From a virus (Duplodnaviria > Caudoviricetes): DNA of 64,000 nt. Of this stretch, positions 29,889-37,604 are shown in pieces (position 1 is the stretch's first letter; the number at the start of each line of letters is the position of its first letter). The stretch is taken from positions 32,001 through 96,000 of IMG/VR virus record IMGVR_UViG_3300021400_000262; one strand, given 5' to 3'. The notes under the pieces were generated by a model. It had not been told where the DNA came from. It was given only the letters and a program-made list of their open reading frames with translations, and did no database searches. The position numbers and the translations under genes are program-made.

Positions 29889-32800
29889 TTGGGAGATAAA
29901 AGCGAACAATTATTTCAAGGAATAGAAATAATTGCAAAAGGGCTTATATCTGATTTAAAATTTAATAAAACCTCAGTATGTACTATTAAAGATACAAAAG
30001 AAGCTTCGCAAGGTAAATATTATGTTACTGATGGAACAAGTTATTTTTATGCATATTCAGAAAATACTGATTATGTAAAAGAATAGCAAGTATATGTAAT
30101 GATTCCTAATGGCGATTATAATAATTAGAAAATTATTACTGGTAAATATTTAGCGAATGAAAACGAATCATATACTTATTCAGCTCCTTTTAATTCTTTT
30201 GTAGATATAACTGGAAATCTTTATAATAGTGCTATTGATGAAGTCCCAAAGTTAGATTCTTCTTTAATTGCGAATGGGGAAATTAAAGAAATTCTTTTAT
30301 GGGAAAATAAAGATTCATTAAAAGGATATACTACTTTAGGTGTTAAAGCAGATTTTAAATCTTTATTAAAAGAGTTTAATACAGTTGAAGGTACTTATGG
30401 ATTAAGAATCGCTATTCGTTTTATTGATTCTACCAATAGAGCTAATTCACAAGTAAGAGTTATTACTTTTACGAATGAAGATATGTATGGTAATCCGTAT
30501 AATTTTGAAACTTATTATACTCAAGAAAAATTATTTACAATAGCCGATAAAGATAAAATTATTGATAGAATTTAGGTATACTTCTTTTAGGATAAAAACT
30601 TTAGAGCTTCAAATGGAGTCAATATTCCTGTAGCTACATTACCGAATCTTTTTATTAAGAATGTTTTTGTTGCTTTAGGATATGATTTAAATGGCTTTGG
30701 AGAAGATTAGGTTTTATTATATAGTTTAAATTCTGATACTTATGATGCATCTTATAGCTCTTTTGAAAATAAGAAAACTATGAATATAAGATGGATTCAT
30801 AAAATAGATGATAATAATTTTGAATGTTATGCTGAAGAAAATGAAGAATTTTCAAATTCTTTAATCATACACTGGTATAAATATAATCTTTCAACTGGCG
30901 TTATAGATCCTCTTGCGGGTAATTTTTGGTAGGAAATACCAGAAGCAAAGAATAAATTTAAATATTCTATTTTTCCGAATACTATAGAAAGTAATGAATA
31001 GTATAAAGTAATTATTGAATCAATTCCTGATAATAATATTGATGATGCAGAGTTAAATAATCTTGAAAATTTAGTTTAGGAAAAATATAGTGTTTTAAAT
31101 GATTATACTGCTAGATATGGGAATTCTAATAACGAGATTGAAATGCAGTTATTAGAAAATGCTCGATAGGAATATGATGCTGCTGTTGAAGATTATGATT
31201 TTTAGAAAGCTTAGTTGTTTGCGGAAACCCAGTATTTTGAAAGTAATGTTTTAACTTTTACTAATGAATCTTTAGTTGCTAATTATGCAAGTATAGATTT
31301 AATTAATGGTCTTTCAATAGAATGTGATTTAAATGGTCAGAAGGGAATTTATAATATATATAATTCTCATAATGAATTAACTAATTCTAGTGAAGGCAAT
31401 AAAATGAGATTAATGACTGCGGTTTATAATTCTATTATAACTGGTCAAGAATCTCTTGATACTGCGGAAAAGATTTCTTGGAGATTCCCTTTAACTAAGA
31501 CAATGATTCAAACTCCAGTCGATGGCAAAGAATATAATACTGCCAATGGAGATGAATACTTTGAGGCTGCGGATGGTAGTTATTGTATTATCACGCGTGA
31601 TGGTACGAAAGCTACTGGGGACATAGGATCGTCTTTCCCGAACGCCGCGAGTCAATATTTTAGAATTAAACCTTATTATGTTGAAGGTGCTACTGATAAT
31701 ATAATTACTTGTTATGTAACCAAGAACAGAACTACTTATACAGCTTCAACTTCTCTTACCTTTGGAAATCAAGGAAATAGTGGAACAGATTTTACTTTTT
31801 TCCTTTAGTGGGAAGAAGGAAGTAATTGTATTTATGAGAATGATGAAGATCCAATTTAGATTTTTGCTCATTTATACGATGAAGAAAATAATGAAATTGC
31901 TCTACGAAATGTTACTTTTGAATGGGTTAATCCTGATACGAAGTTTAGAGATTTTATTATTAATGAAAGTCCAATTACTTTCTGCAATTCTACTGGAAGC
32001 GAATCTTATTATAGTATAAGTGTTGGAGGTAGTGATAGTTGTTATATTCATTATGATAGCATAAGAGAATATAAAGATGGTTTTTGGAATATATTAAAAG
32101 CGACTGTTAAAACAGGAGAATCTGAACCCGTTACTAGTGATGGTTAGGAGCTTGGAGCGGAAGTTGTTTTAACAGCTTATTTATCAATACCTTTAACTCA
32201 AAGAAGAACTACTTCTTCTGGAACAGTTAATATTTTTTCTTCGGTTGAAGGTTGTAATAAAATAATTTATAATTCTTTAGGTTCTAATCCAGATTATTTT
32301 TCTGGTTAGTATAAAATCTTTTAGGGCGCTAATGAATATGATATTGATACAAATGGATATTCTTGGCGGATTTTAATTAAAGATTTTATGGATACTGCAA
32401 TAGATGTAGATGAGTAGAATCATTTAAAGAATTATTATCCATAGATTAAAAATAATTTTATTGTTCCTCCATCTATGTATTTTGGATTTACTGGAATATG
32501 TAGTGCAATTTGTGCAAATGATTTGGGGGATATTATTTGGGCTTAGCCAATAGTCATATAGCAAGATTAGTATAGTTCAGCTTTATTAAATTCTTGGAAT
32601 GGTAAATATACTGTTGATGAAGAGGCTGGAACTATATTAACAACAATGTTGGGAGCTGGGTCTAAAGATGAAAGAAATAGATTTTCTGGAGTTCTTCTTG
32701 GTGATATAGATGATTCTGATAAAGGAGTCTTCGGTTATCATGAAGGTGCTCAATCTTTTGGATTTAGAACCAATGGTAAAGCTTTTATTGGTAAAGCTAA

Positions 32801-35192
32801 TAAAGGTCGAATTGAATTCGACGGAAATTCTGGATCAATTAAAAGTATGTCTTATAGCAAAGGCAATACTGGTATGTTAATTGATTTAGATGATGGTGTT
32901 ATTGATATTTTAGGTTGCGAATATGCAAGTGTTGCGACTGTTTATGATAGTAGCATTGTCTATTGGTATTTAAATGAAGATGAAAAATGGCAATAGATAA
33001 ATGAAATTTATAATCTTTCTGTATAGACAGCAGAAGATTTTAATAAAGGTCCTATTTAGTTAGCTACAGAATAGTCTAAGTAGGATTTGGTTTCACATGA
33101 TGAAACAAGTCCTTATTATAATAAATTTTTATATCCAATAGTAGCAGAGTATTATGATTATAATGAAACTTATTGGTATAAAGATGCTGATAATAATTGG
33201 GCTTAGACAAATGTTCCTGGTAATATTGAATTATTGAGTGAAGATGCTTTTTGGGCTGGTGTTATAGGTCTTGCGAGCAATGGATTAGGAATATCTGTTT
33301 TAACAGATGAAAGCAGTCCTTATTATAATAAATTTTATACATTCTCTGATACGCTTCCTACTGGAGCTGATTTAAACGAATGCTTTTATTTAGATAATAA
33401 TGAAGCTTTTGTTAATCCTAATACTATTCTTGTCTTGGAGGTGCGGACGGCCGCAGACTTCGCATTAGGGCCAGTTGAATTAGCAAGACAACAAAGAAAA
33501 ACAGATAGAATTTTAGCTGATAGTAATAGAGCTGGTTATAATAAATTCTTTTCTGGATAGACAGTAAACGATTCAGATAATAATACAACTTATACAAAAA
33601 CAGATAGTCGAGTAACTATTTAGGCATTATCACCATATATTAAAGTTAATGAGTCTGGAAAAGATGTTTTTTAGATTGCTAAGGACGTGTCTTTTATTTA
33701 GACTAATGATTATAGTTCTAGCGAATTAACAGGAGCTAGAATTACTTTAAAAGGCGCTGATGATACAGTTAATAGTTCGATCAAGCCTTCTTTTGATATA
33801 AAAGCATATAGTGCTACTGGTGGAGTAAAAATGAGTTCCATTTCTCCTTTTTTAGTAGCTCAAGCAAGAGATAATAGTCACGATATAAATGGAGTTAGAG
33901 ATTTAGAAAATTATCCTTATAAAACATTATTAAGTGTTGGCGATAATAGTTATTATTTACAATCTTTTAATTATGAAACTCCAACTTCTAATGCTGAAGA
34001 TGGTACTGAAAACACTACCAATGGCAAAGGAATGAGAATTGATCTTGCTAATGGAAAAATTTTAGGATATGATTTTTCCTTGAAGGCACAAGAAAATTCT
34101 GGAGATTATAATGGTTCTTATGTGGCTATTAATAGCAATGGTAATTCTTATTTAAGAGTACATTTAAAAACAGTTTCTAGTGCTCCAGAATATGAACTTG
34201 TTACTTTTCCTAGTGCAGTAACATCAACTGCTATGGGAGAAGAAGATGGAACTGGATATGTAGCTAATACTTATTATTATTATGATGAAAATACTAATAG
34301 TTATTAGTTAGCTACTGAAGGTTGGAATCCTAATATAACATATTATTAGTTAACAACAATACCCACTCAATTAAGAGATGTTGATTTAATTAATATAGGA
34401 AAAAATAAATTTTTATTACAATCTTAGAACTGGGTTTCTGGTCATTCTGGTACTTAGATTAATTTATCAAGAGGTAAAATAACTTCTTATAACTTTAATT
34501 TAAGAGCAGTTGGAACTGGAGGAACAATTTTTATTAATAGTACCAATCCTACTTATCCTTTTAGAATTGAAGGTAATACAGAACAAAGTATTCAAAATAA
34601 TATTACTTCAACTGTTGTTACTAATGTTGGTAAAAGTTATTTTAGGATAAAATGGAACGGAGATTTTATAGCTGGAAATAATACTAATAATTTGGAATAT
34701 TCCGGTGGACGTTTTACTTTAAAAGGTGGCGTTATTTCTGGTGGTTCTATTAATATTGGAAATGGATTTTTTAAGGCTAATGATGAAGAAGTAAAATTGG
34801 GTGATTGGCATGTTGATAGTTCTAATGGAGCAGATGCTTTTTATTATGGAGATTGGGATGATTCTACTATTGGAATGGCAAATCCTTCTTCTTCTAATCA
34901 TCCATATTATTTATGGGCTGGATGGGGAGACGATTATAAACTACCTAATGGTGCTCATGCAATGTTAGCTACCAATAGAGATGGAACAGAAATTGCTAAT
35001 TTAACTTTATATGGACCTACAAGTTTACATGAAGGTGGAACTCATTATTCCGGATCAACTTTAGGTTCAGCTTTAGATAATTTATATGATAGCATTGATA
35101 ACTATGATACCTGGTTAGCACGAGGAGAATGGCATAGAGAAATTATAGACCATGAAGAAATTTGTCATGCCAGAGGCCCAGAGAATGATTAA
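29889..35192 (+). CDS. large tail-tip protein (1767 aa unspliced), TAG-recoded, intron in its 3' end
   Basis: TTG start after AAAGGAGG; six track ORFs in one frame; first gene after the tape measure; beta-rich GxxIDL-type segments in the C-terminal half. Confidence 0.75.
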
Positions 35193-35438
35193 AATCAGGA
35201 TTAAATGGTGCTAGTAAAATTCCTTAAACTGCGGGGACACCCTTAGAGCTTTTACAACCAAACAAGTACAGGGATGTGCTTGCGGCGATGGAGTAACGGC
35301 CTCGGTATGGTAAAATCGTAAAAGATTGGGCAATCAAACGCATCGAAATCTCTAGAACAGAGAGACGTTCAACGACTATAATAGGAACTCGAAAGAGATG
35401 GTATAGTCTAATCGCTTACGAAATGTAAGAGTGAAATG
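35096..35438 (+). ncRNA. group I self-splicing intron without homing endonuclease (alternative 3' end at 35618)
   Basis: P element AAACTGCGGGGA (35226), R GTTCAACGACTA (35367-35378), S GATGGTATAGTCT (35397-35409); P3 TTCCT/AGGAA, P4 TGCG/CGCA, P7 GACTA/TAGTC, P8 CTC-GAAA-GAG, P9 CTTAC/GTAAG; P1 TAGCAT (35090-95) with GTGCTA (35208-13) ending in U.G. Confidence 0.88.
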
Positions 35439-35616
35439 CAGAAATTAGTAGGCTGCTTTTAATGAAGGAGCTGAAGCTGGTTTTGTAGCTGCTTAGAGAG
35501 AGACACCCTGTGATCCAGATTGTTATTGCAACTATGAATTTTGTGCAGATGATTGCGATACATGTAATAATGGAAATTGTGGGTGCAATAGTGGACAATG
35601 TGAACCAGATGATTAA
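35439..35616 (+). CDS. alternative 3' exon A: 58-aa Cys-rich C-terminus (9 Cys)
   Basis: RNQQAAFNEGAEAGFVAAQRETPCDPDCYCNYEFCADDCDTCNNGNCGCNSGQCEPDD*; in frame after a 35095/35439 junction. Confidence 0.65.
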
Positions 35617-35618
35617 TG

Positions 35619-35886
35619 CTGTAATTCTGATGAAAGTTATACAAGTGGTTCAAATTCTTTAAAAGGACGACTTTATTCTGATGGATATTCAGATGGATAT
35701 GAAGCTTGGGATCCACCATTATATTGTCATCATTGTAATAACAATAAAATATGTGATGAATTTTGTGGGTGTGATATTGTAAATTGCGATTGTAATGATA
35801 ATAGTCCTTGTTCTTGTAATAGATCTTATTGTGGAGATGATTGCGATGATACTCCTTGTTTTAGTTATGGACCTGGTGGAGTGTAA
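35619..35886 (+). CDS. alternative 3' exon B: 88-aa Cys-rich C-terminus (13 Cys)
   Basis: CNSDESY...LYSDGYSDGYEAWDPPLYCHHCNNNKICDEFCGCDIVNCDCNDNSPCSCNRSYCGDDCDDTPCFSYGPGGV*; no usable in-frame start; in frame after a 35095/35619 junction; 10-bp P10 pairing. Confidence 0.65.
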
Positions 35887-35891
35887 AAACA

Positions 35892-37187
35892 ATGATTTAT
35901 ATTATTAATAAAGGTAATAAAAAAATATTTAATATTTTAAAATTACAAAAATATGATTCTTATAAAAGATATATTTTTTCTCCTTATATAATTAAAATAT
36001 GGAAAGAAAACAATTTACTTTTGAGAAATCTCTTAACACAAGAAAGTATTATGTTAAAAAATAGTAATGAAGAAGATGAAAAATTCTTAATTACTCATTG
36101 GTTTAAAATAGAACAAGAATCAAATCCATATGATCTTTTTTAGAAAATTAAAAAAGAAGGAAATGAATCACATAAAAATATAAATAATTACAATTTATTA
36201 ACTGATTTTGATAAAGCTATAATTTATACTACTTTAGATTGTAATGCTAATTGTTATTATTGTTATGAGAAACATTAGTGCTTTTAGCGTAAAAATATGA
36301 CTAAAGAAGTTGCTGATAAATTAATAAATTTAATTATATAGAATAAACCTAAAAAATTTTTTTTCAGTTGGTTTGGTGGAGAGCCTTTATTTAATTATTA
36401 GATTATAGATTATATTATTGATAAGATAAAAGAAAATAATATTGACTATGTTTCATCTATGATTTCTAATGCTATTTTATTTACTCCTGAAATGATAGAA
36501 AGGGCAGTAAAAAAATGGAAATTAAGAAATATTTAGATTACAGTGGATGGGATATATGAAAATTATGAAAAAATAAAAGATGTCCCGAAAGGAAGCTTTG
36601 AAAGACTTGCAAATAATATAGATTTATTAATTTAGAATAAAGTAAAAGTCAGTATAAGATTAAATATTACTCCAGATAATTTACAAGAATTAAAAAAAGC
36701 TATTTTATTTTTTAAAAAATATAAAGGTAATCAATATTTTAGTATTTATACTCATGAAATATTTGATACTCCACTTGATAAATAGAAAAAAATATTTTAT
36801 AATAAAAGAGTATTAAATGAATATATACATTACTATTGTGGACATGACCCAAAGATTATATAGTGGCAAGAAAAATGTTGTATGGCTGATTAGGGTAAAT
36901 GTATCGGTGTTTTACCAGATGGTGAATTAAATATTTGTGAACATTGTATAGACCATGATCACTTTTCAAATTTAGATTAGGATTTTTATGATATAAATGT
37001 TATAAATAAATTTACAGAAATATCTGATAGAAAAGAATGTCAATTATGTCCACTCAGACCGAGTTGTATTTTTTTACATGAATGTGGTGGTAGTAGTGGA
37101 AATCATTGTTCTTAGTATAGAGTAGAAGATAGATTATTAGAACATAAATTAGATTTAATATCTTCTATTGAAAATAAATTAAATTAG
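35892..37187 (+). CDS. radical SAM/SPASM domain protein (peptide/protein maturase-like), TAG-recoded; may run on to 37604
   Basis: CNANCYYC (36240-36263), WFGGEPL, I(TAG=Q)ITVDG, SPASM cysteines CMAD..PDGELNICEH..CQLC..RPSC..C..C. Confidence 0.9.
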
Positions 37188-37208: not shown

Positions 37209-37604
37209 ATGATTACAAGAAATTTATATACCAATTTAGATATTTATAACAAAGCAATGGCTCTTGTTGAGGCTTTTAATACAAAGGAAGGTAAAGAATT
37301 AAATTATCCTGTAAAGATTAATTATTATCTTCAGAAGAATATCAAGGCTTTTGTTGATGCTGCTACAGAGATCGAGCAAAAGAGAATTGAGATTGTTCAG
37401 AAGTATGGTAATAAGAAAGAAGATTCTGAAGAATATATCATTCCAGAAGATAAAATGGATGAAGCAGGAAAAGAATTACAAGATTTCTTTGAACTAGAGC
37501 AAGAGATTCCAGTTAGTATGTTAAAGCTAGATTGGTTTGATAATATTGATATGACTGCAGAGCAAGTTTCTGCGATTTCTTTCATGATTGAGGAAGAGGA
37601 GTAA
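37209..37604 (+). CDS. small acidic protein resembling DUF1617-type tail-associated proteins, 131 aa
   Basis: TAG-free, AAGGAG site; family resemblance by eye only. Confidence 0.65.
   Translation: MITRNLYTNLDIYNKAMALVEAFNTKEGKELNYPVKINYYLQKNIKAFVDAATEIEQKRIEIVQKYGNKKEDSEEYIIPEDKMDEAGKELQDFFELEQEIPVSMLKLDWFDNIDMTAEQVSAISFMIEEEE

Follow-up and report, generated by a model that had tools for sequence, protein, structure and literature searches.

How many C-termini does a single phage tail gene supply? The question arises at the end of a large tail gene in a 64,000-nucleotide (nt) stretch of DNA from a virus of the Caudoviricetes (positions 32,001 to 96,000 of IMG/VR record IMGVR_UViG_3300021400_000262; hereafter the window, numbered from its first letter). 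There the stop codon is followed by a group I intron core, two short Cys-rich coding cassettes (A and B) and a gene for a radical S-adenosylmethionine (SAM) protein. An earlier note on this DNA had read the arrangement as one ribozyme that joins the tail gene to either cassette. We consider it likely that a single ribozyme with one 5′ splice site and two alternative 3′ splice sites acts here, unspliced RNA adding a further form; that both 3′ sites are used we judge about as probable. We lean slightly towards a fuller reading, in which the locus is a programmed alternative-splicing device that gives three tail proteins per infection, one with the ancestral ending and two with Cys-rich endings cross-linked by the radical SAM enzyme, and in which the distal 3′ site comes in three designs.

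Relatives of the locus were retrieved by scanning metagenomes with the downstream radical SAM protein (L141 and L142/L143) and by scanning a genome collection with a core word (L187). L141 is a 1922-nt locus 99.4% identical to the window, L142 and L143 represent one phage from two samples (identical over the 9.3 kb compared) and L187 is a 4.9-kb contig binned with a Bacillota genome. The C-terminal domain of the tail protein matches that of the window at 47% over 265 aa in L142 and at 42% over the last ~100 aa in L187. All three lineages (window, L142/L143 and L187) have a common layout: an intron situated at the corresponding codon, a pair of cassettes behind it and the radical SAM gene after these. 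In scans of viral contigs, neither the tail end nor the radical SAM protein retrieved close relatives. Among 39 relatives selected by capsid similarity, the tail protein (1760–1806 aa) is followed by small acidic proteins, and none of the 39 has the intron, the cassettes or the radical SAM gene at the tail locus; this set thus offered no allele of the C-terminal domain without an intron from which to read the junction directly. Between L187 (298–3088) and L142 (7–2758), tail gene DNA is 86% identical over 2.8 kb, but over the final 450 nt ahead of the intron the two part sharply, which suggests that C-terminal domain, intron and cassettes may be exchanged as a module.

The core itself is matched by Rfam family RF00028 along the full model (window 35159–35431, model positions 1–253; 32.6 bits, E = 3.6e-6), and L142 likewise has a match (43.3 bits, E = 1.4e-9). 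The model is weak for this subfamily, because the nrdD introns that represent it in cultured phages go unmatched at E of 0.01 or better. Two of these, from Enterocloster phage CB457P1 and Enterococcus phage VRE9_1, are ~72% identical to the window core, and viral contigs hold further family members, in nrdD, polymerase-like and other genes. Using RNAalifold on five family members, we obtained 41 pairs, 19 of them with compensatory changes, and recovered P4, P5, P6 and P7; covariation in P3, P8 and P9 was seen by inspection of the alignment. Between lineages the core is ~91–95% identical, as against 41–47% for the flanking proteins, and the window and L141 do not differ in it at all. No endonuclease open reading frame (ORF) was found in the window intron. 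Judged from the letters, then, this is a genuine group I intron without an ORF, as the earlier note had it.

We propose that the ribozyme derives from the nrdD-type introns of this phage group. A plausible source is the nrdD intron of the relative L177 (G028; reverse strand, ~1480–2180), which belongs to this family and holds a homing-endonuclease ORF within its P8 loop. Separately, L178 (G025), a relative by capsid similarity, has a different group I intron inside an apparent tape measure gene (~1500–1760), and its record holds several more intron-like matches.

The 5′ splice site could be placed by analogy with these introns, whose splice sites are fixed by the conserved NrdD glycyl-radical motif and whose internal guide sequence (IGS) corresponds in position to window 35208–35213, with no P2. 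Its pairing partner is a six-base exon word, giving a 6-bp P1 that ends in U.G and a site at 35095/35096 in codon phase 2, exactly where it had been predicted. L142 carries the identical word on the corresponding Ser-Ile codons. L187 has substitutions at the opening base of the word and at the final base of the IGS, converting the sixth pair of P1 from U-A (window and L142) to G-C, and this covariation supports the 5′ site. The Ser codon at the site is AGC in all three lineages, a codon that accounts for 8% of Ser codons in the window genes, and the phase is 2 in each. Two further words in the P1 loop, at 35116–35121 and 35130–35135, are complementary to the IGS and were considered as alternative 5′ sites; one has C-G instead of U.G. 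Because neither occurs in L142 or L187, they are probably chance or lineage-specific decoys. The second lies in one copy (35126–35145) of a 20-nt direct repeat, 75% identical, whose other copy (35428–35447) covers the proximal 3′ junction.

The sequence between the 5′ site and the IGS forms the loop of P1, with lengths of 112, 99 and 49 nt in the three lineages. In each of them the reading frame of the exon runs on uninterrupted across the loop to a stop a few bases short of the guide, so that the loop encodes an ending for the unspliced messenger RNA (mRNA), 31 aa long in the window, as proposed earlier. The loop peptides have a short aromatic/acidic motif in common, the similarity between window and L142 being marginal (221 of 5000 shuffles reach its score), and distant intron-less homologues extend 8–25 aa beyond the equivalent point. 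The simplest history would be that the loop is the ancestral C-terminus, the ribozyme having landed behind the stop codon and its guide having been retargeted upstream.

Two candidate 3′ junctions, 35438/9 and 35618/9, follow the core. They are 180 nt apart, have 10 of 12 bases in common and each open a frame to a TAA of their own, which agrees in full with the earlier description. At all six junctions of the three lineages a G is followed by a C, the exon-2 C lies opposite a guide G, and codon phase is maintained. The distal exon also pairs far better with the guide, again as had been noticed: in the window, guide positions 35194–35203 form a 10-bp P10 with exon B positions 35622–35631 (−10.6 kcal/mol), whereas the best run of exon A is 5 bp, out of register with its junction (−2.1 kcal/mol). 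The P9.0 run is likewise 6 at the distal site versus 3 at the proximal site. When P9.0 of at least 5 bp and P10 of at least 10 bp were both required, 5 of 19,319 genomic G positions qualified, two of them being 35618 and the G three bases downstream.

Comparison with the other lineages revealed that the distal site is marked in each, by different means. L142 has a different guide, which forms a 12-bp P10 with its own exon B, cross-pairings reaching only 4–6 bp; the P10 of the distal site thus covaries between window and L142, and together with the P1 change in L187 this supplies the covarying guide and exon bases for which the earlier note had suggested looking in related phages. L142 also carries a second copy of P8′-J8/7-P7′-P9 directly before cassette B. 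The two copies are 80–85% identical, compared with 45–55% for the paralogous cassettes, and P9 has undergone a compensatory change between them; the second copy was detected independently by Rfam. Since homing-endonuclease ORFs occupy the P8 loop in other family members, a large insertion there is evidently tolerated, and a cassette A looped out at this place in L142 is plausible. In L187 an exact 12-nt repeat precedes both junctions. The marks are therefore a long P10 in the window, a duplicated domain with P10 in L142 and a repeated word in L187. No single P9.0 or tail-to-guide rule was found that covers the six junctions, and a viral contig scan for two copies of the P7 strand 150–180 nt apart gave no match.

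Both cassettes bear the signature of coding sequence. All eight differences between window and L141 within 35439–35886 are synonymous third-position changes (three in A, five in B), supporting purifying selection on each. Window and L142 are 45% identical in cassette A and 41% in cassette B, and both cassettes are recognisable in L187. They are rich in Cys, Asp and Asn and contain in-frame TAG codons, as does the tail gene. Starts are another matter. Window B, which had been said to have none, indeed has no in-frame ATG, GTG or TTG, nor does either cassette of L142; in L187 neither A nor B has an upstream in-frame start, start-like codons being confined to the inside of the cassettes. Window A has an in-frame ATG (35398) and GTG (35431) within the core, neither of them conserved, and independent translation of A from ATG 35398 was rejected for that reason. 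A coupled restart at the TAATG overlap (35614–35618) was rejected too, its ATG being out of frame and meeting a stop after two codons. That the TAA at 35614 is a sequencing error, a possibility named in the earlier note as one that would undo its proposal, is ruled out by the presence of the same TAA in the independent assembly L141. As a side observation, an unrelated phage protein (L175, 943–996; L176, 3001–3054) ends with the Tyr/Gly-rich lead-in motif of cassette B, which may be a more general C-terminal module.

Taken together, the following sequence of events would fit. A large tail gene would have gained a group I ribozyme behind its stop codon and put it to use. The guide would pair with a word that precedes this stop by 32 codons, and the first step would cut the mRNA after 35095, so that the native last 31 codons, which make up the P1 loop, would be discarded. 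In the second step, use of G35438, just behind P9, would join the body of the protein to cassette A (58 aa); use of G35618, held by the long P10 with the guide and probably by P9.0, would join it to cassette B (88 aa). Translation before splicing would give the ancestral ending. Two 3′ sites and the unspliced RNA would therefore provide three C-termini from one gene, and counting from the TTG at 29889 reproduced the lengths already proposed: 1767 aa unspliced, 1794 aa with A and 1824 aa with B. We infer splicing at these named sites, and some ratio among its products, from the pairings and reading frames above.

Several observations weigh against this scheme. Its comparative base amounts to three lineages. 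The Rfam scores of both window and L142 lie under the gathering score of RF00028 (50 bits). P1 loops of 49–112 nt are unusually long beside the 11–17 nt of other family members, and minimum free energy folding of the region fails to form P1 unaided. Exon A offers about 2–3 bp of P10 in register, and the distal P10 of L187 is both weak and shifted out of register. A second 3′ catalytic domain is absent from the window, which like L187 repeats just short junction words; a candidate second P7 strand at 35588–35592 was rejected because it is missing the C of the G-binding pair, and the distal site of the window must therefore use long-range P9.0 and P10. Finally, cassettes A and B of the window are adjacent and in frame with a single TAA between them, making readthrough possible in that lineage.

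This last arrangement is central to the strongest alternative, which we regard as unlikely: a single proximal 3′ site through which only A is spliced on, with B reached by readthrough of the TAA as an A–B fusion, by reinitiation, or not at all, as a decaying duplicate. The position of the proximal G, at the canonical place after P9 with a junction conserved in L142, would suit such a scheme, as would the lone in-frame TAA and the want of a second 3′ domain in the window. Against it stand purifying selection on B (5 of 5 differences synonymous) and the orthology of B in three lineages. Readthrough from A to B is impossible in L142, where a second in-frame TAA stands in the spacer, and in L187, where B lies in a frame other than that of A, at a spacing of 157 nt; this spacing also means that two 3′ sites need not be a multiple of three apart. 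TAA is moreover the normal stop in the window genome, ending 15 of 17 large genes, and a TAA suppressor was not among the transfer RNAs (tRNAs) of the 110-kb record, which has tRNAs for Ala, Trp and Lys only. Furthermore, the long P10 with its covariation, the duplication of the 3′ domain and the 12-nt repeat converge on the distal junction.

Use of the distal site alone would turn cassette A into an ORF within a 3′ extension of the intron, expressed separately or not at all. The much stronger P10 of the distal exon in window and L142 speaks for it, as do the intron-internal ORFs tolerated in this family and the two in-frame start codons of window A. Those starts are unconserved, however, and L142 A has none; A is coding (3 of 3 differences synonymous) and 45% identical between lineages; and in three lineages the proximal G followed by C stands directly after P9 in the right phase for exon 1. 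We hold this alternative to be very improbable. Hardly any weight falls on a third, in which the ribozyme no longer splices, persisting as a relic or as a processing or stability RNA, and the cassettes are small radical SAM precursor peptides translated from unusual starts: precursors of ribosomally synthesized and post-translationally modified peptides (RiPPs) are normally small stand-alone genes beside their maturase, and the Rfam scores under gathering would fit a defunct core, but the core far exceeds the coding DNA around it in conservation, with compensatory changes in P1, P6, P8 and P9, phase is preserved at six of six junctions, and three of six cassettes are without ATG, GTG or TTG while the other three are without a conserved start. 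A DNA inversion system was discarded, as no suitable inverted repeats are present.

Table 1. Positions in the window of the tail gene end, the intron elements, the cassettes and the neighbouring gene.
Feature	Position	Strand	Remarks
Exon 1, common body of large tail protein	29889..35095	+	ORF open only with TAG = Gln; first gene after tape measure gene
Exon strand of P1	35090..35095	+	6 bp with IGS, ends U.G; predicted 5′ site after 35095, codon phase 2, Ser-Ile
P1 loop (coding part)	35096..35192	+	31 codons and TAA; C-terminus of unspliced mRNA
P10 guide	35194..35207	+	Immediately 5′ of IGS; G35207 faces the C starting exon 2
IGS	35208..35213	+	Aligns in position with nrdD intron IGS; covaries with exon word in L187
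Catalytic core	35220..35429	+	Rfam match, covariation
P3	35220–24/35383–87	+	
P4	35230–35/35334–42	+	
P5 with extensions	35240–35330	+	
P6	35344–53/35359–67	+	
P7	35374–80/35402–08	+	
P8	35388–97	+	
P9	35415–29	+	
Proximal omega G (candidate)	35438	+	9 nt after P9; junction conserved in L142; L187 equivalent is G then C
Exon A (predicted)	35439..35616	+	One base completing an Ile codon, 58 codons of Cys-rich cassette (three in-frame TAG), TAA
Distal 3′ tail (candidate)	35609..35618	+	35611–35615 with J7/9 (35409–35413) as P9.0; omega G 35618; cassette A stop inside
Exon B (predicted)	35619..35886	+	One base completing an Ile codon, 88 codons of second Cys-rich cassette, TAA
Radical SAM/SPASM peptide-maturase-like gene	35892..37187	+	PF04055, PF13353; to 37604 with TAG = Gln

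The genomic setting bears on what kind of protein is being extended. The source viral record is 110 kb long and estimated to be 61% complete. TAG encodes Gln in this phage, long ORFs appearing only under that reassignment, and in its capsid protein it shares 41% identity with Enterococcus phages of ~140 kb and 49–56% with gut phage records. A tape measure gene (2873 aa, matching tape measure PHROGs) lies directly upstream of the large gene at 29889–35192, which begins with a TTG behind a strong Shine-Dalgarno site and ends with the TAA at 35190–35192. This position supports a tail protein, so that half of the name given in the earlier note, ‘tail-tip protein’, stands. The other half goes further than the position shows: a tip or receptor-binding label would have as its sole ground the place directly after the tape measure gene, and any part in adsorption is put forward here as conjecture. 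The last 166 aa had no matches in a protein search or among cultured phages.

Downstream of cassette B, the radical SAM protein matches Pfam families PF04055 (5.4e-18) and PF13353 (2.9e-10) and has a CX3CX2C motif and C-terminal Cys clusters. Its top NCBIfam matches are peptide maturases, all scoring far under the cut-offs (the best, TIGR04334, at 80 bits versus a cut-off of 600); the gene thus appears to resemble the maturase class while falling into no named equivalog family. Homologues follow the cassettes in L142, whose protein is 44% identical to that of the window, and in L187. Because each of the three lineages has a radical SAM gene behind the cassettes, these are probably substrates of the enzyme, a link not drawn in the earlier note, and would be cross-linked after translation. 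At the natural end of this gene the only stop-like codon is a TAG (37185–37187); read as Gln, it carries the frame into an acidic protein of 131 aa for which a separate ATG is present at 37209, and the frame is continuous in L142 too. In 10 relatives the acidic part is a separate gene of ~139 aa directly after the tail gene, sometimes in two copies.

If the proposed reading is true, this would be the first natural group I intron that chooses between dedicated terminal exons to diversify a protein, and the first RiPP-like modification reached through RNA splicing; the radical SAM link suggests that a virion protein can receive RiPP-type chemistry at its end. Alternative splicing is usually seen as a eukaryotic route to several proteins per gene. 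Here ribozymes normally viewed as selfish would have proved recruitable as devices of gene expression, and a phage would have a way to diversify a tail protein at the RNA level that needs neither invertases nor retroelements. Between them, the three natural designs would amount to a compact, protein-free and programmable switch for the choice of a 3′ site.

Several known systems come close to the proposed one. The nrdD (sunY-type) introns of CB457P1, VRE9_1 and L177 belong to the same core family (72–85% identity in parts); they agree with it in the position of the IGS, in a guide just 5′ of the IGS, in the want of P2 and in accepting large P8 insertions. They differ in interrupting a conserved enzyme gene, in a P1 loop of 11–17 nt, in a single 3′ site and, often, in encoding a homing endonuclease. 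In Podospora mitochondria, group I introns reportedly have one ribozyme and more than one 3′ site in vivo (Sellem and Belcour, in 1994, NAR 22:1135); the alternate site there is said to express the intron endonuclease ORF fused to the upstream exon, and not alternative endings of a host protein. Maturases named in NCBIfam for ranthipeptides, SCIFF and CXXX repeats resemble the downstream gene in having a Cys-rich substrate directly upstream, a CX3CX2C motif and C-terminal Cys clusters. In contrast to their leader-core peptides, the putative substrate here is the C-terminus of an ~1800-aa protein, attached by splicing, and the scores lie far under the cut-offs. Invertases (Gin of Mu, Cin of P1) and diversity-generating retroelements give tail fibres alternative C-termini by changing DNA, with one form per genome at a time. 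In the present case RNA would be the level of choice, and a single infection could yield every form.

Self-splicing offers nearer comparisons. Group I exon skipping has been described in phage Twort orf142, which encodes a tail tube protein (PMC10136302), and in the SIOphi polymerase gene (PMC11878797). These cases likewise have phage group I introns giving more than one ligated product; they involve two or three complete introns from between which a short exon is dropped, with no choice of terminal exon, no shared 5′ site and no unspliced isoform. Alternative splicing by group I introns in the literature searched comprises cryptic or alternate sites and exon skipping only (PMC10136302, PMC11878797, PMC3073962). 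We found no description there of a phage group I intron that chooses between terminal exons, in line with the earlier statement that no phage system of this kind had been described. As a wider claim that statement does not hold: alternate group I 3′ sites and group II alternative splicing are known, and the novelty is therefore confined to phages and to protein isoforms made by group I introns.

The closest parallel, and the only well-documented case of a protein-diversifying self-splicing intron that we found in the literature, is the group II intron C.te.I1 of Clostridium tetani, in which one 5′ site and several alternative 3′ sites give a surface protein different C-termini (McNeil, Simon and Zimmerly, PMC3919590). 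Both introns lack an ORF and combine a single 5′ site with at least two 3′ sites, predicted ones in the phage, behind which stand in-phase ORFs that are not independently translatable. In C.te.I1 the 3′ catalytic domains are repeated before the downstream exons, as in L142, and the upstream ORF ends at a stop beyond the real 5′ site, so that unspliced RNA represents a further isoform (PMC3919590). C.te.I1, however, is a group II intron with lariat chemistry, resident in a bacterial chromosome and serving exons of 1–2 kb, whereas the present element is a group I intron in a phage, with cassettes of 58–88 aa. In the window and L187, moreover, the distal site has no repeated catalytic domain and is apparently chosen by base pairing alone.

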